Source: Ohtaekwangia sp.
Lineage (GTDB): Bacteria; Bacteroidota; Bacteroidia; Cytophagales; Cyclobacteriaceae
Direction of reading: 5' to 3'
DNA: 64,000 nt
Assembly: GCA_036503775.1 (NCBI GenBank)
Contig: DASXWH010000188.1
Location: forward strand, 15,461 to 79,460
Positions 35,016-44,398 of the stretch are shown here, one piece after another. The position numbers and the translations under genes are program-made. A model generated the notes under the pieces. It made no database searches. It was not told where the DNA came from and saw only the letters and a list, made by a program, of their open reading frames with translations. Position 1 is the first letter of the stretch. Every line of letters begins with the position of its first letter.

Positions 35016-35181
35016 GATCACGTTAATTCATCTGCATATTTGCACGTTGGACTGAAGAGTTGCTATCTTTAAGTCCATGCAAATTGGACAGCGAAGAATT
35101 TTTAATTCTTATTTTTTTGGTTCTTTATTTGCAATAATTTTTTGGCAACGCTGTTTTTATCACAAACTGTCTCTGAAAGTA

Positions 35182-38100
35182 ATGCAAAGGTTTATTGCCC
35201 TTTTATTTTTTGTTTTTTGTCTTCAGTCTCTTTACGCCCAGGATCAGCTTTCACAGAATAAGGTTGAAAGACTTTATCAACAGGGAACAGACCTGGTGAA
35301 TCATGCCAACTATGGAGCCGCCCGTGAAGCATTCACTGAATTTTTGTCGCAGGCATCGTCAACAGATTCGCGCAGAAGCGAAGCGGAGTACTATGTGGCA
35401 TTCTGTGCGCTTAACCTCAGTCATAAAGACGGGGAGAAACTGATTGACGATTTTATTGATAATAATCCTTCCAGTCCAAAAGCATCAACGGCTTTCTATG
35501 ATCTGGCTGTCTTCTTTTATGGTGAAGGTAATTACATCAAAGCATCCCAGTATTTTACAAAAGTAGATTTCCCGGCCCTTACCCAGGATCAGCAGAATCA
35601 GGGACACTTCAAATGGGGGTATAGTCTCTTCAATCAGAAAAAACTGGATGAAGCACTTGAACAATTCAATTTTGTAAAACGGCAGAGCAATGAATACACT
35701 CCAGCGGCAAATTATTATGCCGGCTTCCTGGAATATTCTAAAGGTTTGTATGACGAAGCGTTATTTGATCTGAAGCGGGCTGAAGCCAACGCATCGTATG
35801 CATCCATAGTGCCTTACCTGATTACCAATATCTACTACCGCCAGAAACGGTATGATACGGTTATTGAGTACGCAAACAGCATTAAGGGGCGGACGGATGT
35901 TTCCAATGCGGCTGATATTTCTATGCTTGTGGCAGAAGCCTATTACTTTAAAGGTGATTTCAAAAAGGCAGTTGATGCGTATCAGAAATACTTTGAGGCC
36001 AACGGAAAGCCTGAAAGCGGTCTGTTGTTCCGCGCTGGATATGCCAACTATGTGGCCGGAAATACTGAAAGGGGTATCGAGTATCTCGATAAGGCCGCGG
36101 CTTCAAAGGACACTGTCAGCTACTATGCATCCTATTATTTAGGAATACTTCATCTCAAAAGTGGCAATAAACCTCTGGCACTTAACTCTTTTAATTTTGC
36201 CAGGAAGAATCCTGTCGACAAGAATTTAGCAGAAGAGAGCTCCTTTCAATTTGGTAAGCTGGCCTATGATGCCGGTAAGCCAGAGCTCGCTATTACCGAG
36301 TTCGAGTATTTCCTCAAAACCTATCCGTCAAGTAATCATTCCATTGAAGTAAAGGAGTTGTTGGCGCAGGCGTACATCAATGGAAATAATTTTAATAAGG
36401 CAATAGAATACATAGAAGCTCTACCATCACGCAATCAATATATCAATCAGGCATATCAGAAAGCGGCCTACCTCAAAGGATCGGAGCTGTTTAATAAAGA
36501 AGAGTATGCGAGTGCTGTTGAATATTTTGGTAAATCTCTGGAGTACCCAATTGATAAAGGATATGTTGCGCTGGCAAGTTTCTGGAATGGTGAAGCTTAT
36601 TCCATCGGTAAGAAATACAAAGAAGCTATAACTAACTATCAGGGTGTGATCAGCAGTACAGCCGCAGAACCTGAAATTACACTGAAGACACGTTATGGGT
36701 TAGGCTATGCCCATTACAACCTGAAAGAGTATGATAAAGCGCTGTATAACTTTAAGGAGTTCACGAACAAAGCGAATAAAAATTCTCCCAACTATAATGA
36801 CGCTCTCATCAGGCTGGCTGATTGCTATTATGTAAGCAAACAATACAGTGAAGCCATAGCCACATATAATCGTGCAAAATCCGCTTCCTCTCCCGACAAT
36901 GATTATGTTCTTCTTCAGACCGGTATCATAAATGGGATTCAGCGAAAGTACAGTGAAGCGCGAACTCAATTCACTGAACTGATCCGTAATTATCCCAAAT
37001 CACAATACCGTGATGAAGCCATATTCCAGCGGGCACAATTTGAAATTGAACAAGGAAACTATCAACAGGCAATTGATGGGCTTTCTCAGCTGATCAATGA
37101 AGGAAACAATTCACCGTATGTCCCATACGCCTACATGCGCAGAGCGGCTTCCGCTTTTAACCTTAAACAGTACGACCGTACCGTAAGTGATTATTCGACC
37201 GTCATTCAGAATTTCCCCACACACCCCGCAGCTCAGGAGGCTTTGGTACCGCTTCAGGAAGCACTGAGTTTGTCAGGTAAGTCGGGTGATTTTGATGCGT
37301 ATCTGGAGAAAGTTGAAAAGGCCAATCCCAAGAGTGAGGGCCTTGAGAATCTAAAATTTGAATCCGCAAAGAATCAATACTTCGATCAGCAGTATCAGAA
37401 ATCCATTACAAGCTTCAATAGCTTTCTGGCCACCTATCCCGAAACAGCAAAGGCCAGGGAAGCACGTTTTTACATTGCAGAATCTCATTACCGGCTTCGT
37501 GATTTTGAGAAAGCGCTGCCCGTCTATACTGAGTTAGGTAATGACATGACCTTTGAGAACAGCGGTAAAGCCATTGCACGCCTGGCCGAAATTGAATTTA
37601 AGAAAGGAAACTACGAGAGGGCGATTATAAACTACCACCGCATGGAGAAGTTAGCCACAAATAAAAAGGATCAGTACACCGCATGGTCTGGTTTGATGGA
37701 ATCATTTTACCTCACAACCAAGTATGACTCAGCTGATGTTTACGCCAGAACAATTCTGGAGAGAGGTAATATCAGTGCAGGTGCACAAAACAAGGCGTCA
37801 TTATATCTCGGAAAGACAGCCATGGCCAAAGGTGACTATGAAACAGCCAAGGATGAATTTCTGAATACTCTGAATGCTGCCCGTGATGAATATGGTGCTG
37901 AAGCTAAATATTTGCTGGCGAGAATATTCTTTGATCAGAAGGAACATAAGCAGTGTTATGAAACGCTGATCAGTCTGAATAGCGATTTTTCGGCATATGA
38001 AGAATGGGTGGGTAAATCCTTCCTGCTGTTGGCCGACAACTTCATGGTGCAGGACGATGTGTTCCAGGCCCGGGCAACGCTGCAGTCTCTGATTGACCAG

Positions 38101-38208
38101 TTCCCGCTTCAGTCTGTAAAAGATGAAGCCCGGAAAAAATTAAAGCAACTAGAACAGCTTGAACTGGAGAAGCAAAAGAAAGCTGAAGCAGATACATTGG
38201 ATAATTGA
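35182..38208 (+). CDS. Large exported TPR protein
   Basis: ATG at 35182 gives signal peptide MQRFIALLFFVFCLQSLYAQ; many TPRs through to the C-terminus (QARATLQSLIDQFP). Confidence 0.88.
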   Translation: MQRFIALLFFVFCLQSLYAQDQLSQNKVERLYQQGTDLVNHANYGAAREAFTEFLSQASSTDSRRSEAEYYVAFCALNLSHKDGEKLIDDFIDNNPSSPKASTAFYDLAVFFYGEGNYIKASQYFTKVDFPALTQDQQNQGHFKWGYSLFNQKKLDEALEQFNFVKRQSNEYTPAANYYAGFLEYSKGLYDEALFDLKRAEANASYASIVPYLITNIYYRQKRYDTVIEYANSIKGRTDVSNAADISMLVAEAYYFKGDFKKAVDAYQKYFEANGKPESGLLFRAGYANYVAGNTERGIEYLDKAAASKDTVSYYASYYLGILHLKSGNKPLALNSFNFARKNPVDKNLAEESSFQFGKLAYDAGKPELAITEFEYFLKTYPSSNHSIEVKELLAQAYINGNNFNKAIEYIEALPSRNQYINQAYQKAAYLKGSELFNKEEYASAVEYFGKSLEYPIDKGYVALASFWNGEAYSIGKKYKEAITNYQGVISSTAAEPEITLKTRYGLGYAHYNLKEYDKALYNFKEFTNKANKNSPNYNDALIRLADCYYVSKQYSEAIATYNRAKSASSPDNDYVLLQTGIINGIQRKYSEARTQFTELIRNYPKSQYRDEAIFQRAQFEIEQGNYQQAIDGLSQLINEGNNSPYVPYAYMRRAASAFNLKQYDRTVSDYSTVIQNFPTHPAAQEALVPLQEALSLSGKSGDFDAYLEKVEKANPKSEGLENLKFESAKNQYFDQQYQKSITSFNSFLATYPETAKAREARFYIAESHYRLRDFEKALPVYTELGNDMTFENSGKAIARLAEIEFKKGNYERAIINYHRMEKLATNKKDQYTAWSGLMESFYLTTKYDSADVYARTILERGNISAGAQNKASLYLGKTAMAKGDYETAKDEFLNTLNAARDEYGAEAKYLLARIFFDQKEHKQCYETLISLNSDFSAYEEWVGKSFLLLADNFMVQDDVFQARATLQSLIDQFPLQSVKDEARKKLKQLEQLELEKQKKAEADTLDN

Positions 38209-38228
38209 TCGTTTTATTTTTTGCGATA

Positions 38229-39923
38229 ATGAAAATGACTTTTCATAGAATAGTGAACACAGCGATGAGTAAAGTATACATCCTGACTTTTAGTTTTTGT
38301 ATGACGTATGTCATGGTACAGGCTCAGGATCCTAAACAGTGGGATGGAGAAGGTGACCTGAAGCCTATTGAGGTTATCATCACAACCGAGCGTCAGATTA
38401 CATTACCCAGTGCGAACCGTAATTTTGACAAGGTTCCGCCCCGCCCGGTAGAAGCGACTAAGCCGCCTTTTACCTATGACTTCAGATCGTTCAGTTTCCA
38501 GGCACCACAGGTTTCACTACCCGTCAAGCCTTTAAAATTAAAAGCCCAAAGCAAACCTACGTTATATGGAGGCTATCTGCGGGCAGGTTATGGTAACTAC
38601 GCTTCGCCTTTGCTTGAGGCCTACATCAACTCGACACGGGATAAGAACAAACTTTATGGTGCACGCTTTCATCACCGAAGTTCTGGTAAGGGGCCGGTCG
38701 ATGGGAAGAATTCCGGCAGTGGATCAACAGGTATTTCTGTATTTGGAAAATCATTCAGTGACGACCTTGCCTTGTCCGGTAATCTGAGCTATGACAACCG
38801 AACCACTCATTTTTATGGTTATCCCAGCGATGCAGAGGTCAATGAGGACTCGTTGAAACAATCGTATAAGGTATTCAAACTTTCGGGCGAGCTGACCAAC
38901 GCTAAAAACTCTGACATTGCCTACAGGCTTGGGGCAGGGTTCAGCTATCTTTCCGATAAGTTCGATGCCCGGGAAACAGAAGTTAATTTACTGTTCAATT
39001 CCTCTTATGATATTGATGACGAGACACGGATTGATCTGGACGCAGGTTACTATGGGATTACACGCAAGGACGAAGCAGTTGAAGCCAAGCCACGAAGCTT
39101 ATTCACTGTATCGCCTTCCTATTCTCTGTTGGTAATGGAAAGTATAAAGCTGACTGTTGGATTGACCGCAGCTTTTGAAAATGATAGTATTGACTCCAAG
39201 AGTGCTCATCTCTACCCGAATTTCAGAGCAACGTATCCGGTAAGTCCATCGGTTGACCTGGTGGCTTCACTGACAGGTGGTATAGAGAAAGTATCTTTGC
39301 AGTCTTTAAGTAACGAAAACCTTTGGCTTGCTCCGAATGTTCCGGTATTTCATACCAACAAGACATTTGACCTGGAAGTTGGTCTGAAGGCCAGACTGGG
39401 TAACAAAGTATCTGCACAGGCCGGTCTTTCCATGGCTAACTTAAAAAACTGGTACTCCTATGTAAATCTGCCGGAGGATCCATCGAAGTTTACAGTAGCC
39501 TATGATGAAGGGGGAGTGAAGCGCACTAACCTTTATGCTTCGCTGAGTTATGCACAGTCTGAGCTAGCCAAATTCATGGTAAGGGGAGACTACTTTGGAT
39601 ATAGGGCAGATGAACTGAGTGAAGTATGGCACCGGCCAACGTACAGATTAACGGCACACGGGTCGTACAACCTGTATCAAAAGATGATCTTCAGTGCTGA
39701 CCTCATTGCTCAGGGAGGTATGAAAGCTTTTGACCCTGAAACAGGCAACGATGTCAAGCTTGATGGTGCCTTTGACCTGAATCTTAAAGGGGAGTACCTC
39801 TTCTCCGAGAGCTTCTCAGCCTTCGTTCAGTTGAACAATATTACCTCTAATGAATACCCCTTGTTCCTGAACTACCCGGTCCGTGGCTTTCAGTTATTGG
39901 CCGGCATAACCTGGAGTTTCTGA
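38229..39923 (+). CDS. Outer-membrane beta-barrel of the short 'TonB-dependent receptor-like' Bacteroidota type
   Basis: Signal peptide (start 38229 or 38265); GYLRAGYGNY, alternating strands, ends YPVRGFQLLAGITWSF; at ~560 aa it is short for a classical plug+22-strand TBDT. Confidence 0.7.
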   Translation: MKMTFHRIVNTAMSKVYILTFSFCMTYVMVQAQDPKQWDGEGDLKPIEVIITTERQITLPSANRNFDKVPPRPVEATKPPFTYDFRSFSFQAPQVSLPVKPLKLKAQSKPTLYGGYLRAGYGNYASPLLEAYINSTRDKNKLYGARFHHRSSGKGPVDGKNSGSGSTGISVFGKSFSDDLALSGNLSYDNRTTHFYGYPSDAEVNEDSLKQSYKVFKLSGELTNAKNSDIAYRLGAGFSYLSDKFDARETEVNLLFNSSYDIDDETRIDLDAGYYGITRKDEAVEAKPRSLFTVSPSYSLLVMESIKLTVGLTAAFENDSIDSKSAHLYPNFRATYPVSPSVDLVASLTGGIEKVSLQSLSNENLWLAPNVPVFHTNKTFDLEVGLKARLGNKVSAQAGLSMANLKNWYSYVNLPEDPSKFTVAYDEGGVKRTNLYASLSYAQSELAKFMVRGDYFGYRADELSEVWHRPTYRLTAHGSYNLYQKMIFSADLIAQGGMKAFDPETGNDVKLDGAFDLNLKGEYLFSESFSAFVQLNNITSNEYPLFLNYPVRGFQLLAGITWSF

Positions 39924-39977
39924 TGTCCTTCAGTTACCCTTTCACCAGCCCGGAACATCAATGTTAGCCTGTGAACG

Positions 39978-40008
39978 TTTGTATCCCTGAAATTTTAGCT
40001 TATTTTTG
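39978..40008 (+). promoter_or_regulatory. Bacteroidota sigma-A promoter (-33 TTTG, -7 TATTTTTG)
   Basis: TTTG 39978-39981, 19-nt spacer, TATTTTTG 40001-40008 upstream of the SPOR gene. Confidence 0.65.
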
Positions 40009-40046
40009 TATGATAACCTGTTCCTTAAAACCATAATATTTAGAAC

Positions 40047-40805
40047 ATGGCCAGAAGAAAAAAGCAAAACGAAGATCAATCTCCCGACAATACCGATAAC
40101 ATCAACAATGAATCCGATGATAGCTTCGGACTCCCCGAAGTAGAATATGAACCGTTAAAACGTGATGAGCCTCAGTCATCAACAAGCGGAGAATCAGAAT
40201 CCTCCTACGAGGAAGTAAGCAATGAACAAACTCAGGAAGAAGTCGTTCAGGAAGAACCCATAGATGAGCCTTCCTACAGACCTTCATATGAAGAAGAGGA
40301 AGAGCGGCCATCCGTGTTACCTAAAGTTCTTGTGATTGTTGTGTTACTGGCGATAGCTCTTGGAGCAGGATGGTGGTTCTTTATTGAGAGCCCTAAACGA
40401 GAGGCTGCTAAAATTGCAGAACAGGAAGCGAGAGCAAAGGCTGAACGCCTGCGCCTGGCTGAAGAGGAAAGACTTGCCGAACTGAAGCGTCAGGAAGATG
40501 AGCAGAGACGCGCTGATTCGCTGGCAAATCTTACCCCTAAAGAAGGATCTATTGAAACCCTTACCGATCGGACAAGACGTTATTATGTGGTGGTTTCCAG
40601 TGCTATCGATGATGATCTGGTCATGGATTATGCGAAGAAACTCAGCAAGAATGGTGTGAACTGTACGATAATTCCTCCATTTGGTAAAACGAAATTCAGC
40701 CGGTTAGCAGTTGATGTTAAAGATTCGTTTGCCGATGCCCAATCTGCCGCTGATGCCCTCAAAGGCGGTGATTTTGGCAGTGAAATTTGGGTTGTGAAAT
40801 ATTAA
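40047..40805 (+). CDS. Bitopic membrane protein with coiled coil and C-terminal SPOR-like domain
   Basis: Acidic N-terminus; TM VLVIVVLLAIALGAGWWFF; EEERLAELKRQE helix; YYVVVSSA...AKKL...FSRLAV...A...L...EIWVVKY. Confidence 0.72.
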   Translation: MARRKKQNEDQSPDNTDNINNESDDSFGLPEVEYEPLKRDEPQSSTSGESESSYEEVSNEQTQEEVVQEEPIDEPSYRPSYEEEEERPSVLPKVLVIVVLLAIALGAGWWFFIESPKREAAKIAEQEARAKAERLRLAEEERLAELKRQEDEQRRADSLANLTPKEGSIETLTDRTRRYYVVVSSAIDDDLVMDYAKKLSKNGVNCTIIPPFGKTKFSRLAVDVKDSFADAQSAADALKGGDFGSEIWVVKY

Positions 40806-40834
40806 GTCAGCATAGCCGCAGCAGGCTGGCTGAC
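40806..40834 (+). terminator. GC-rich hairpin after SPOR gene (no U-tract)
   Basis: GTCAGC..AGCC-loop-GGCT.GCTGAC. Confidence 0.4.
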
Positions 40835-40877
40835 GTGAACGGAAGTAGCTGTAATATTTTTTAAACTCGCTTCTTTC

Positions 40878-41537
40878 ATGATTTTACTTCAGGTCGTAAA
40901 TGACGCTGAGTCACTTTCTGACTCAGTCGTTTCCGTTGGATTATCCGTAACCGGCATTCTGGTTATGATACCTATTGGTATTCTTTTAATCCTTGTAATT
41001 TATCTGGTAGTGGATCGCTTACAGGTGATCAGCAAGGCAAACCAGAATCCCGATCAGTTCATGCTGAAGGTGAAAGCACTCGTTTTGAAGGGTGATATTA
41101 CTAGCGCCAGAACCCTGTGCGCACAGCAGGATACCCCGGTAGCGCGGATGATAGAAAAGGGGCTATCCCGTATCGGAAGTCCATTGCGAAATATCGAGGC
41201 AGCCATCGAGAACACAGGCAGACTTCAACTCTTTAAACTCGAAAAGAATATCTCTGTACTGTCAACCGTTGCGGGTGCTGCACCACTGCTGGGATTTTTA
41301 GGAACGACATTTGGAGTGATTGAAGTATTTACGATCTCAAAAGAAAGCGGAGCATTGCTTCCGGATTTACTTTCGTCAGGTATGTACAATGCCATGATCA
41401 CCACCGTGGCAGGATTGATTGTTGGCCTGATTTCCTATCTGGCATACAATTATCTGGTGGCACAGGTGAGGAGTGTGGTACACAAAATGGAGTACACCTC
41501 CATCGATTTTATTGATATGCTGCAAGAACCGCGATAA
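40878..41537 (+). CDS. exbB: MotA/TolQ/ExbB proton channel family protein
   Basis: LSTVAGAAPLLGFLGTTFG, AMITTVAGLIVGL. Confidence 0.88.
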   Translation: MILLQVVNDAESLSDSVVSVGLSVTGILVMIPIGILLILVIYLVVDRLQVISKANQNPDQFMLKVKALVLKGDITSARTLCAQQDTPVARMIEKGLSRIGSPLRNIEAAIENTGRLQLFKLEKNISVLSTVAGAAPLLGFLGTTFGVIEVFTISKESGALLPDLLSSGMYNAMITTVAGLIVGLISYLAYNYLVAQVRSVVHKMEYTSIDFIDMLQEPR

Positions 41538-41556
41538 TCATTACGTTGTTATTGAA

Positions 41557-41949
41557 ATGAGACTAAACCCGGCAAATAAGACTGACAGTGGAATGGGCAT
41601 TGTTTCAATTGCCAGTGTTGTCTTTTTATTGCTGTTCTTTTTTGTGGTCACCACTTCGTTTATAACGCCTTTTGGGATACCGCTAAAATTTCCGAAAAGT
41701 GAACAGCGGGTATCGGAGTATCTTACGCTGGCCACAGTGACGATCACAAAAGATCTCAAATACTTTGTTGATCGTAAGGAGGTAACAAGGGGTACACTGG
41801 AGGGTGAGCTCAAAAGCAGACTCAAAGGGCAGGATGGATGGGTTGTAGTATTGATTGATCAATCTGTTCCTGCCGAACATCTGATTACGGTAGCAGATGT
41901 AATAACAAAACTGGATGCAAAAGTAATAATAGGAACAAAGCCTGAGTAA
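41557..41949 (+). CDS. exbD: ExbD/TolR family protein (lacks the conserved TM Asp)
   Basis: ATG at 41557; IASVVFLLLFFFVVTTSFITPFGIPLKFP; VLIDQSVPAEHLITVADV. Confidence 0.82.
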   Translation: MRLNPANKTDSGMGIVSIASVVFLLLFFFVVTTSFITPFGIPLKFPKSEQRVSEYLTLATVTITKDLKYFVDRKEVTRGTLEGELKSRLKGQDGWVVVLIDQSVPAEHLITVADVITKLDAKVIIGTKPE

Positions 41950-41958
41950 ATTAGCACT

Positions 41959-42834
41959 ATGATCACCCGGAAAAAAGAAGTAAAAAACCAACGGATAGCA
42001 TTCTTGACATCAATTGGTATCCATTCACTGATACTGGTGGTGTTGTTGTTTCTGGTTGCCTGGCAGGCACCGGATCCTCCCTTAGGAGCCCTTGGCTATG
42101 GTGGAGTAGAAGTAAATCTGGGATTTGACGAACAGGGTTATGGTGATATTCAGCCTGAAAATCTGGTGGGATCTGAAGGAACCCAGCAAGAGGAACCCGA
42201 GAAAACAAATGAAGAACCTCAACCTCAGGAACCGGAAACAAAACCTGAACAGGAGATCGTTTCAGAAGAGGAAAGTGCTGTAGCGGTGAAAGCTAAAAAG
42301 GAAGATGATAAACCGGTTGAAAAGCCAAAAGAAAAGCCGGTAGAGGTAAAGAAGGAGCCCGAGAAGAAAGTTGACCAAAATGCCACTTATAAGCCGAATA
42401 CGCAAAAAACTGAATCGGATAATAAGACAACGGATGGTAAGGCTGGTAAGTCCGGAAACCATGGTGACGATAAAGGAACAACGGGTGACAAAGGCAATCC
42501 GGAAGGCTCTCTGGACGCCAAAGCATTATACGGCAAACCCGGAAGCGGTGGGGGTGATGGAGGTGGCGTATCCATGTCCGGGTTCAATGGTTTTGAGTGG
42601 CCCAAGGTGGTTACCCCTGAGTTACCCAGCAACGCATTTGGCGTTTATGAGTTCACGGTTAAAATAGATGAGCAGGGAGAAGTGATCAGCGTAACCCCAT
42701 TACAACGTGGTCTGAGTCTTGAGGCGGAGAAAAAACTAAAAGATATGATTCAACGCCTTTCCTTTATCGCCAAGGGTTCAAACCTACCACCGCAGACCGA
42801 AGGGAAAATAATATTCAGAGTTGTTTCAAACTAA
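41959..42834 (+). CDS. TonB/TolA-like energy transducer
   Basis: N-terminal TM with SxxxH (TSIGIH); P/E/K-rich linker; Gly-rich segment; C-terminal FTVKIDEQGEVISV...GKIIF. Confidence 0.75.
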   Translation: MITRKKEVKNQRIAFLTSIGIHSLILVVLLFLVAWQAPDPPLGALGYGGVEVNLGFDEQGYGDIQPENLVGSEGTQQEEPEKTNEEPQPQEPETKPEQEIVSEEESAVAVKAKKEDDKPVEKPKEKPVEVKKEPEKKVDQNATYKPNTQKTESDNKTTDGKAGKSGNHGDDKGTTGDKGNPEGSLDAKALYGKPGSGGGDGGGVSMSGFNGFEWPKVVTPELPSNAFGVYEFTVKIDEQGEVISVTPLQRGLSLEAEKKLKDMIQRLSFIAKGSNLPPQTEGKIIFRVVSN

Positions 42835-42842
42835 CGCAATAC

Positions 42843-43052
42843 TTGCCTGATCAACGTTATATTCTCTTCGTTCAGGACGTGTTGATAACACTTCATGCTA
42901 ATATCCGAGAACTGAAGGAACGCAGAACCTTTGCCGACCCTGAAGAGCTTACGCACATAGAAGCCAAGCTTCTGGCCTATACTGAAATGCTTGGCATTCT
43001 CAAATCAAGTGCAGATGAATTTGGTGTTGATCGTAAAGAAATTGGTCTTTGA
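42843..43052 (+). CDS. Small hypothetical helical protein (69 aa)
   Basis: Fills the tonB-folC gap exactly; amphipathic helical composition; TTG start. Confidence 0.5.
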   Translation: MPDQRYILFVQDVLITLHANIRELKERRTFADPEELTHIEAKLLAYTEMLGILKSSADEFGVDRKEIGL

Positions 43053-43102
43053 GTTAATCATAAAGTTCAGCGAATTAACAACCAGCCCTTATCTTGCCGC
43101 GC

Positions 43103-44398
43103 ATGCTCACCACCTACGCAGACGTACTTTCATACCTTTATAAAAATCTTCCGATGTTTCAGCGCGTGGGCGCTGTCGCGTACAAGGGAGACCTCTCAAA
43201 CACGATCCGGTTGTGCGAGGTGCTTGGTGATCCACAAAGAAAATTTAGATCCATTCATGTAGCGGGAACCAATGGCAAAGGGAGTACATCACATATGCTG
43301 TCTTCCATTATGCAGTCTGCCGGATATAAAACAGGCTTGTATACTTCGCCTCACCTCAAGGAATTTACAGAGCGCATACGGATCAATGGCCAAGAGATAG
43401 ACAGAGAATTTATTGTTGATTTTGTAAACCGGATCAAACCTGCTATTAAGGAGATCAATCCTTCTTTTTTTGAGATAACGGTGGCCATGGCATTTGAATA
43501 CTTTGCACAGAAGAACGTTGATATAGCCGTGGTTGAAGTAGGCCTTGGTGGCCGGCTGGATTCAACTAACATAATCACACCTGAAGTTTCAGTGATCACC
43601 AACATCGGTTGGGATCATAAAGACATCTTAGGGGACACACTCGAAAAGATTGCGTCAGAAAAAGCAGGAATCATCAAACCGGGTGTCCCCGTGGTGATCA
43701 GTGAACGTCAGCAGGGCATTGATAATATCTTTATCCAGAAGGCCTCAGAAGTAAACACAGAAATTGTTTTTTCCTGTGATCAATTCAGTGTTTTTCAGAA
43801 GAATGTCAAACAAGGTTTTGCCTATGAGATATTACACGCAGATCATTCTATATTCTCAGATTTATATTTACCCCTTCAGGGATCTTATCAGCGTAAGAAC
43901 CTGGGTGGAGTAATGGCTGCAGTTGAAGTATTAAAGGCTAAGGGCTGGCGGATTTCCAATGATCAGGTAAAAGATGGTTTGTTAAAAGTAGTGTCACAGA
44001 CCGGACTCAAAGGAAGGTGGCAAATATTAAATGAGAGGCCCTTAATGATCTGCGATACCGGCCATAATATTGATGGAATTCATGAAGTGCTTTCACAGCT
44101 AAAAGCTCAGCCTTTTGATAAGCTGCACATGGTGTGGGGAATGGTACGTGACAAGGATATTTCTGATATTCTCTCCGTACTTCCGAAAGAGGCAAATTAC
44201 TATTTTTGCCAGGCCAAAATTCCAAGGGCTATGGGAGCTGGTGAACTGGCTCAGCAAGCTTTTGAAAAGGGATTAAGGGGGGTGATCATTCCCGATGTAA
44301 ATGAAGCTATCCGGGAAGCAAAGACAAAAGCCTCACCCGATGACCTGATTTTTATTGGCGGAAGTACGTTTGTGGTAGCAGAAATCGATAATCTATAA
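43103..44398 (+). CDS. folC: Folylpolyglutamate synthase/dihydrofolate synthase
   Basis: IHVAGTNGKGS, GLYTSPHL, EVGLGGRLDSTN, EKAGIIK, GRWQ, CDTGHN, GSTFVVAE; ATG 43103 or TTG 43094. Confidence 0.96.
   Translation: MLTTYADVLSYLYKNLPMFQRVGAVAYKGDLSNTIRLCEVLGDPQRKFRSIHVAGTNGKGSTSHMLSSIMQSAGYKTGLYTSPHLKEFTERIRINGQEIDREFIVDFVNRIKPAIKEINPSFFEITVAMAFEYFAQKNVDIAVVEVGLGGRLDSTNIITPEVSVITNIGWDHKDILGDTLEKIASEKAGIIKPGVPVVISERQQGIDNIFIQKASEVNTEIVFSCDQFSVFQKNVKQGFAYEILHADHSIFSDLYLPLQGSYQRKNLGGVMAAVEVLKAKGWRISNDQVKDGLLKVVSQTGLKGRWQILNERPLMICDTGHNIDGIHEVLSQLKAQPFDKLHMVWGMVRDKDISDILSVLPKEANYYFCQAKIPRAMGAGELAQQAFEKGLRGVIIPDVNEAIREAKTKASPDDLIFIGGSTFVVAEIDNL

Follow-up and report, generated by a model that had tools for sequence, protein, structure and literature searches.

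A 64,000-nucleotide stretch of an Ohtaekwangia sp. genome (contig DASXWH010000188.1, positions 15,461 to 79,460; 'the window' denotes this whole stretch) encodes upstream of folC an ExbB/ExbD pair, here termed pair 1. Its ExbD/TolR-like subunit carries a serine, Ser20, in place of the transmembrane (TM) aspartate. This aspartate is regarded as the single indispensable element of MotB, ExbD and TolR stators. We consider it probable, at roughly 60%, that pair 1 is a proton-uncoupled, superseded stator which stands between full function and deletion and was displaced by a second, Asp-bearing ExbB/ExbD pair (pair 2) encoded elsewhere in the same genome.

The open reading frame (ORF) of the window ExbD matched Pfam ExbD (PF02472) at 6.8e-16 with 58.9 bits against a cut-off of 25.4, covering profile positions 5-126 of 128. 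The start codon was backed by homology (MRLNPANKTDSG in the window, MRLNSKNKVDAG in a relative of the same genus). A hydrophobic stretch of residues 14-36 (mean Kyte-Doolittle hydropathy 2.5) is followed by a periplasmic domain, and the ExbB gene (PF01618) ends 19 nt upstream. Domain match, a single N-terminal TM segment with a periplasmic domain and an ExbB neighbor are traits of the ExbD/TolR family; missing is the protonatable TM aspartate (D25 in ExbD, D23 in TolR, D32 in MotB). Read from the DNA, the TM segment is G14-IVSIASVVFLLLFFFVVTTSF. The orthologue consensus is FSMASMTDLIFLLLIFFMLTSSF, and in the alignment Ser20 falls on the consensus Asp. An orthologue-group profile was aligned to solved structures. 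Column 20 corresponded to D25 of E. coli ExbD (6TYI_Y, 'pfiDVMLVLLIIFM'; 1.5e-7) and to D23 of TolR (9DDM_Y, 'pllDVLLVLLLIFM'; 7.6e-4). The profile succeeded where a phmmer search of the PDB with the single window ExbD had returned no match. Neither Asp nor Glu is present in residues 11-47. D10 is cytoplasmic and also found in Asp-bearing orthologues; thus the alignment offers no other acidic residue for the TM segment. An earlier reading of the window from its letters only (the sequence-only reading) had placed the serine at the D25/D23 position, and in this it was right.

The presence of Ser20 is confirmed. Three separate Logan run assemblies (SRR11823712, SRR11823713 and SRR11823714) matched the window without a difference over 2.7-12.4 kb (100% identity), all with AGT at codon 20. 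Because, in addition, the exchange of Asp for Ser requires two nucleotide changes (GAT or GAC versus AGT), a sequencing or assembly error is very unlikely.

The Asp column was then read in 108 unique orthologues. It holds Asp in 103 (GAC/GAT), Asn in three (AAT/AAC) and Ser in two (AGT). The non-Asp set consists of the window, the genome G187 (Ser; TM segment SVFALASVVLLLFILFM), the genome G203 (Asn, locus L063), the metagenome contigs L125-L127 (Asn) and a short contig carrying P0002 (Asn). The codons are compatible with a single-step route GAT to AAT to AGT. In the window and G187 the change is convergent, from T-D to A-S with the identical AGT codon, although the two are less similar to each other (42% identity) than to the Asp-type proteins (48-54%). 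In a maximum-likelihood (ML) tree of flanking genes the window was sister to G004, a genome in which the pair is deleted (bootstrap 99), and G203 was placed among Asp-type Chryseolinea. This placement indicated that the losses of Asp were at least partly independent. Descent of the window and G187 from a common Asp-less ancestor was considered and rejected: a FastTree phylogeny of ExbB and ExbD united them (0.90), together with L125 (0.96), but flanking-gene trees and genus separate them, and each is closer to Asp-type proteins than to the other (42% and 46% identity between the two). We treat the grouping as apparent long-branch attraction or convergence; transfer of the pair is a possible alternative cause. 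As a side observation, two contigs of the MAG G203 (C846 and C374; loci L129, L164 and L063) overlap within the Asn-type exbD, in which both terminate; this assembly break exactly in the gene may be due to strain heterogeneity.

What the loss of the aspartate may mean was judged from E. coli mutants. ExbD loses its activity in D25N, D25C and D25A; D25N nevertheless dimerizes and binds ExbB, and it is dominant-negative and not rescued by wild type. Among 15 substitutions of MotB D32 only D32E is slightly active, and TolR D23R is inactive (bioRxiv 10.1101/2022.09.26.509584). Considering these data, we expect no coupling of proton flow to movement in a remodelled pentamer with a Ser20 axle. We infer that conductance was lost, as was the proton motive force (PMF)-dependent energization of a TonB/TolA partner by the Ser20 pair. 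The mutants are of the same family and are altered at the same TM position, where a neutral residue abolishes the PMF response while the protein inserts, dimerizes and binds ExbB. They differ in being single exchanges made in the laboratory, whereas the loss described here arose naturally. It did so in at least three or four lineages (twice to Ser, two or three times to Asn) and is accompanied by remodelling of pore and loop in ExbB and by a replacement motor in the same genome.

The genome of the window has five ExbD genes, and the four others all carry Asp. They are located in a canonical TonB cluster, in an orphan position and in pair 2 (see the table below). Pair 2 has its best family match in TolQ. 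The pair is strongly conserved among orthologues, as seen in SLNDIMFFLLLFF or SLNDIMFFLLLFFLIISTV and, in ExbB2, in GT and LYEKM. On contig C32 (21973-28829; loci L001, L002 and L004) a PstS-like gene, a 559-residue tetratricopeptide repeat (TPR) gene and pair 2 come after the canonical cluster, the last directly upstream of nuoA. In G229, a genome with pair 1 only, the corresponding locus (L192) has TPR2, a gap of 537 bp and nuoA and lacks pair 2. This gap indicated that pair 2 is an insertion or deletion at a fixed position. The adjacent nuoA/nuoB (C32:29140-30090) are about 90% identical in some relatives. They had no match at E <= 1e-60 in five of six pair-1-only genomes tested, i.e. the NDH-1 operon seems to be patchy as well.

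The two pairs exclude each other to a large extent. In a sample of 151 genomes of the family nearly all had exactly one pair type. Both pair states were determined for 60 genomes of two genera, g1 and g48. Pair 1 only was present in 25 (7 of g1, 18 of g48), pair 2 only in 27 (12 and 15), both pairs in four (1 and 3) and neither in four (0 and 4). The negative association was significant (Fisher p = 1e-8). Asp was lost in three of the four genomes with both pairs (the window's genome, Ser; G187, Ser; G203, Asn) compared with none of 38 pair-1-only genomes checked (p = 3.5e-4). Every Asp-less case with a known genome, i.e. each of these three, carries pair 2. In at least 24 relatives with pair 2 the folC-linked exbB-exbD was cleanly excised, leaving the order bitopic protein, TonB-like protein, small ORF and folC. 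The TonB-like gene was present in 20/20 g1 and 36/40 g48 genomes, including genomes without pair 1. Separately, two incomplete metagenome-assembled genomes (MAGs) had interrupted matches: in G224 an ExbB2 match contained two TGA codons, and in G221 matches to a folC-type ExbB and the TonB-like protein contained several in-frame stops. Either genuine pseudogenes or errors of assembly could account for these interruptions.

The genome assembly consists of 309 contigs, and one might suspect an artefact, i.e. a wrong base in the Asp codon or two motor pairs from different organisms in one bin. This is hardly credible. Besides the agreement of the three run assemblies and the two base changes required, 14 further conserved sites are altered in the same protein. 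The contigs of pair 1 (C188) and pair 2 (C32) have a GC and tetranucleotide composition typical of the genome (6th and 61st percentile of distance). C32 bears the only canonical ExbB-ExbD1-ExbD2-TonB cluster of the genome, and C188 its only folC. With typical composition and single-copy functions on both contigs, the co-occurrence of the pairs is no binning artefact; it was also seen in G187, G203 and G217.

Next, we asked how far the remainder of pair 1 has changed. The nearest relative was only 53% identical, and population contigs were identical to the window. Constraint was gauged by violations of conserved columns, by neutral simulation and by a replacement-spectrum test. A violation is a change at a column that is conserved to at least 95% in about 100 Asp-type orthologues; this comprised 43 columns in ExbD and 92 in ExbB. 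The window had 15/43 violations in ExbD and 22/92 in ExbB, and the other Ser variant, G187, had 17/43 and 26/92. In the Asn variants the numbers were 4/43 and 7/92 (L125) and 2/43 and 8/92 (G203); in G217, which has both pairs and retains Asp, 2/43 and 5/92. In the background the medians were 0 and 0 with maxima of 4 (ExbD) and 11 (ExbB). The rise thus is stepwise, from G217 via the Asn to the Ser variants, and then to deletion. Among themselves the Asp-type proteins of the two genera have 79-80% identity; compared with them the window ExbD is 48% and its ExbB 61% identical. The flanking genes of the window were practically unchanged (1/24 violations in the TonB-like protein, 0/18 in the bitopic protein, 2/106 in FolC). 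Therefore, the burst in ExbB and ExbD does not reflect a generally long branch.

Within the window ExbB the changes are unevenly distributed, 4/9 in TM1, 14/47 in TM2-loop-TM3 and 2/26 in the cytoplasmic domain. Sites that are invariant in 92/92 orthologues are affected by M137L, V144T, M147V, A150V, E157S and K199S and by an in-frame deletion of one codon after F151 at the end of TM2. The loop between TM2 and TM3, QEEGsVSPKLL, was enriched for change in the four Asp-less lineages (18/63 versus 12% expected, p = 3e-4). It was altered in 4/4 of them as opposed to 16/100 background sequences. The columns violated in the window overlapped only marginally with those violated in G187 (p = 0.15 for ExbD, p = 0.04 for ExbB). 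The ExbB N-terminus, which had appeared diverged on first inspection, does differ, but it is variable throughout the family and uninformative; the real divergence is in TM1 and TM2-loop-TM3. As the sequence-only reading had stated, the pore threonines are kept, T143 in GFLGT and T175/T176 in AMITT, as is the SxxxH motif (S18xxxH22) of the TonB-like protein. In many Chryseolinea-type genomes, some with an intact Asp-type pair, the motor-binding His of this motif is Gln.

Acceleration confined to the motor genes, absence of an essential residue and deletion of the pair in relatives might suggest a plain neutral pseudogene under unconstrained drift. We regard this as very unlikely. In the window and in G187 both ExbB and ExbD are full-length open frames without a stop, frameshift or truncation. 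When neutral substitutions were simulated on the genes of a relative up to the observed excess divergence, ExbD remained stop-free in 6.4%, ExbB in 9.6% and both jointly in about 0.6% of cases per lineage, with indels excluded. The replacements at conserved columns of the window had a mean BLOSUM62 score of +0.32 compared with -0.41 for the neutral single-step spectrum (p = 0.004); for G187 p was 0.00015. The ExbD TM segment lost Met, Thr, Asp and Ser and its hydropathy rose from 1.85 to 2.5; it remains an uninterrupted hydrophobic helix. Simple pseudogenization, which the sequence-only reading had named among the findings that would overturn it, is thus not supported for pair 1.

The same observations bear on the main rival, according to which the pair is uncoupled and yet positively retained. 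An Asp-less ExbB5-ExbD2 complex would then serve as a static scaffold, anchor or brake, e.g. by holding or sequestering the TolA-like protein or by binding peptidoglycan via its conserved periplasmic domain, and pair 2 would supply the energy. Intact frames in two deeply diverged Ser lineages, conservative replacements and the more hydrophobic helix are in line with this proposal. In G187 the periplasmic domain of ExbD was spared (2/17 violated) compared with its N-terminus and TM segment (15/26, p = 0.004); in the window, where the cytoplasmic domain of ExbB was spared (2/26), this contrast was not significant (p = 0.33). Asp was among the earliest residues changed in G203 and L125, the exchange of T-D for A-S is convergent in distant proteins, and E. 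coli ExbD D25N still assembles. However, at least 24 related genomes live without pair 1, and the open frames could also result from polar effects on genes downstream and from toxic misfolding of the membrane proteins. We know of no static function for any Asp-less stator. On balance a retained static role is possible but rather doubtful. In its strictest form this proposal would have Asp removed by selection and not by drift: after the arrival of pair 2 the old motor would have been silenced repeatedly by a single missense step, D to N and then N to S, and the complex kept, in a non-rotating state, as scaffold or brake of the TolA-like transducer. To this form, too, we give only tentative credence. 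If true, ExbB-ExbD without Asp would act as a 'pseudo-motor' in a static role, and the ExbB residues that changed together with Asp (the QEEG...K loop, M147, A150, I169, I184 and K199) would map the proton path of the family.

Pair 1 might also still be an active motor. Ser20-ExbD could pair with an Asp-bearing paralogue (ExbD_2 or the orphan on contig C16) in an ExbB or ExbB2 pentamer, or the proton could be carried by ExbB E149 or a new D163. Four Asp-bearing ExbD paralogues are available, one of them without an ExbB of its own, and TonB clusters of Bacteroidota routinely hold two different ExbD genes. The Thr rings of ExbB are kept, and K163 has been replaced by an acidic residue, Asp in the window and Glu in G203. 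Against this, the TM segment of the window is not shifted towards that of ExbD_2, and ExbB has changed at pore-lining positions where working orthologues show no variation (M137L, V144T, M147V, A150V and the deletion after F151). E. coli D25N is dominant-negative and wild type did not rescue it, and relatives deleted the pair. A relocation of the charge to E149 in TM2 of ExbB was rejected since Glu is also present in 13/92 Asp-type orthologues and, hence, is not specific; position 171, the E176-like site, is T/E-variable across the family. A heteromeric or alternative-carboxylate motor is without specific support and in our view unlikely.

Of the three options in the sequence-only reading, a non-conducting or structural motor, a heterodimer partner and a decaying paralogue, a mixture of the first and the last fits best: the coupling residue is lost, change in ExbB and ExbD is accelerated, an Asp-bearing pair 2 exists and relatives deleted the pair. 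The term paralogue was misplaced; the window gene is the ancestral orthologue and pair 2 the newcomer. Displacement by pair 2 is the most economical account of the distribution, and we propose the following course. Initially, the window ExbD would have been the TolR/ExbD-type axle of an ancestral, folC-linked TolQ-TolR-TolA-like envelope motor of Cytophagales. Proton coupling would have been given up by the change of the TM Asp to Ser, most simply via GAT, AAT and AGT, with the Asn variants of relatives as intermediates. Neighboring polar residues of the ExbD TM segment became hydrophobic, and ExbB was remodelled in the pore-lining TM2, the TM2-TM3 loop and TM1. Most likely pair 2 took over and would now energize the retained TolA-like protein in trans. 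Pair 1 would have lost the coupling residue early, drifted under weaker constraint and faced eventual excision, a process that sister lineages would have completed by clean deletion of exbB-exbD. In the window the old pair would persist as intact, foldable membrane proteins which do not form a canonical proton-driven 5:2 motor. A spacer of 9 nt separates the motor genes from the tolA-like gene, and folC lies not far downstream; because of this proximity truncating mutations would risk polar effects. Such effects and the cost of misfolded membrane proteins probably keep the frames open.

Several points weigh against the displacement of pair 1 by pair 2. G217 has both pairs and kept Asp; co-existence does not force the loss. 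In G203 Asp is one of only two ExbD changes, which looks targeted rather than random. Intact frames and conservative replacements despite heavy change could signal a positively retained function. Finally, the evidence for a takeover of the TolA-like protein is the distribution of the pairs.

Pair 1 belongs to a larger locus with the order TPR protein, outer-membrane (OM) barrel, bitopic protein, ExbB, ExbD, TonB-like protein, small ORF and folC. About 80 species-representative Cytophagales genomes share this order by synteny, among them Ohtaekwangia, Chryseolinea, Fulvivirga and Cyclobacteriaceae MAGs. Even genomes as small as about 1 Mb have the locus, and there it contains the only ExbD candidate. 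Features and coordinates are listed here.

Table. Features of the folC-linked locus (window coordinates) and the other ExbD genes of the same genome (contig coordinates).
Feature	Position	Strand	Basis or remark
TPR protein, 1043 aa, YbgF/CpoB-like repeats	35077..38208	+	NCBIfam tol_pal_ybgF TIGR02795; synteny
OM beta-barrel-like protein	38235..39923	+	weak Pfam OMP_b-brl match (9e-4), below cut-off; syntenic in ~70 loci
Bitopic protein: acidic N-terminus, one TM, coiled region, small C-terminal domain	40047..40805	+	syntenic in ~85 loci
ExbB/TolQ-like pentamer subunit, 219 aa	40878..41537	+	Pfam PF01618, 7.8e-24; best NCBIfam match TolQ, below cut-off
ExbD/TolR-like subunit, 130 aa, Ser20 replacing the TM Asp	41557..41949	+	Pfam ExbD PF02472
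AGT codon 20 (Ser20) at the Asp position	41614..41616	+	sequence and orthologue alignment
TonB/TolA-like force transducer, 291 aa	41959..42834	+	NCBIfam tolA_full, 2.6e-8, below cut-off
Small ORF, 69 aa, between TonB-like gene and folC	42843..43052	+	tblastn; same position in many relatives, <=82% identity
folC (Mur-ligase family), anchor and rate control	43094..44398	+	Pfam Mur_ligase_M/C
Canonical cluster ExbB-ExbD1-ExbD2-TonB, two Asp-bearing ExbDs	contig C32, 21973-24736		
Pair 2, ExbB2-ExbD_2, Asp-bearing	contig C32, 27744-28829		after TPR gene, before nuoA
Orphan Asp-bearing ExbD, 165 aa	contig C16, 44999-45496 (locus L003)		resembles canonical ExbD2; no adjacent ExbB or TonB

The TPR protein matched TIGR02795 with 206.9 bits (cut-off 90.1) in eight stretches. 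The bitopic protein had no Pfam match; a 'SPOR-like' label for it was dropped as its C-terminal domain lacked Pfam support even at E <= 10. The 69-residue ORF had no family match and is a called gene in L125. In the TonB-like protein, an N-terminal TM segment with the SxxxH motif is joined to a TonB-type C-terminal domain by a disordered linker in which Lys, Glu and Pro are abundant. In an AlphaFold model the TM segment and the C-terminal domain had a predicted local distance difference test (pLDDT) score of 84-95 and the linker was disordered. A profile search of PDB sequences gave nothing meaningful for this protein, but Foldseek retrieved TonB C-terminal domains as top matches of its C-terminal domain (probability 0.99-1.0), with TolA C-terminal domains ranked lower. 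This domain (window 42526-42831; loci L132-L188) occurs in at least two flavors, 'PLQRGLSLEAE..KLK..' and '..SLS.EAA.ACR..', independent of genus boundaries. The window has the flavor common in the other genus, with 62-66% identity there compared with 41-53% in its own genus. This suggests allelic exchange.

The NCBIfam equivalogs of the Tol system all scored below cut-off (tolQ 57.6 bits, cut-off 221; tolR 24.8, cut-off 127; tolA_full 33.5, cut-off 59.5). No TolB or Pal was seen among the genes at 35077-44398; the remaining genome was not searched for them. Similar to the proteobacterial Tol-Pal system (TolQ-TolR-TolA-TolB-Pal-CpoB), the locus has a triplet resembling TolQ, TolR and TolA/TonB beside a YbgF/CpoB-type TPR protein, and it is kept across an order. 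It differs in the sub-threshold scores and in having an OM barrel and a bitopic protein instead. Judging by these matches we call the locus Tol-like, short of membership in Tol-Pal. According to a 2025 survey tol-pal loci are not identifiable in Bacteroidetes (PMC12204202). The locus may represent an unrecognized Tol-like envelope system in a phylum without a reported Tol-Pal.

That a motor encoded elsewhere may energize a non-cognate transducer, as proposed for pair 2, has a parallel in the cross-complementation of ExbBD and TolQR in E. coli. The two substitute for each other with about 10% efficiency (Braun and Herrmann, 1993, as cited in bioRxiv 10.1101/2022.09.26.509584). Both systems are kept in E. 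coli, whereas the distribution found here suggests full replacement and deletion.

The GldLM/PorLM motor of Bacteroidota, also of 5:2 stoichiometry, has a dimeric inner subunit without a TM Asp. Its protonatable Glu is on the pentamer subunit, GldL, and is paired with an Arg of GldM. This is a precedent for a charge on the outer ring. The pair in the window has no sequence relationship to GldLM/PorLM, however, and its ExbB has no lineage-specific carboxylate in a TM helix.

The window ExbD, then, is a natural and recurrent Asp-less variant of a known stator family, largely explained by redundancy. Within one gene family nature has provided a graded series, from Asp via Asn to Ser with a remodelled pore and on to deletion, which is linked with the arrival of a substitute pair. 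Loss of the coupling residue tends to come early, with the protein still intact. ExbB loop and pore residues that are constrained only while Asp is present are candidates for the proton path. A transducer of the TolA/TonB type in Bacteroidota apparently can be re-assigned to a motor encoded elsewhere, and a conserved Tol-like locus exists in an order without a recognized Tol-Pal system. For annotation this means that an 'ExbD' in genomes of the Ohtaekwangia/Chryseolinea type is not always part of a working motor.

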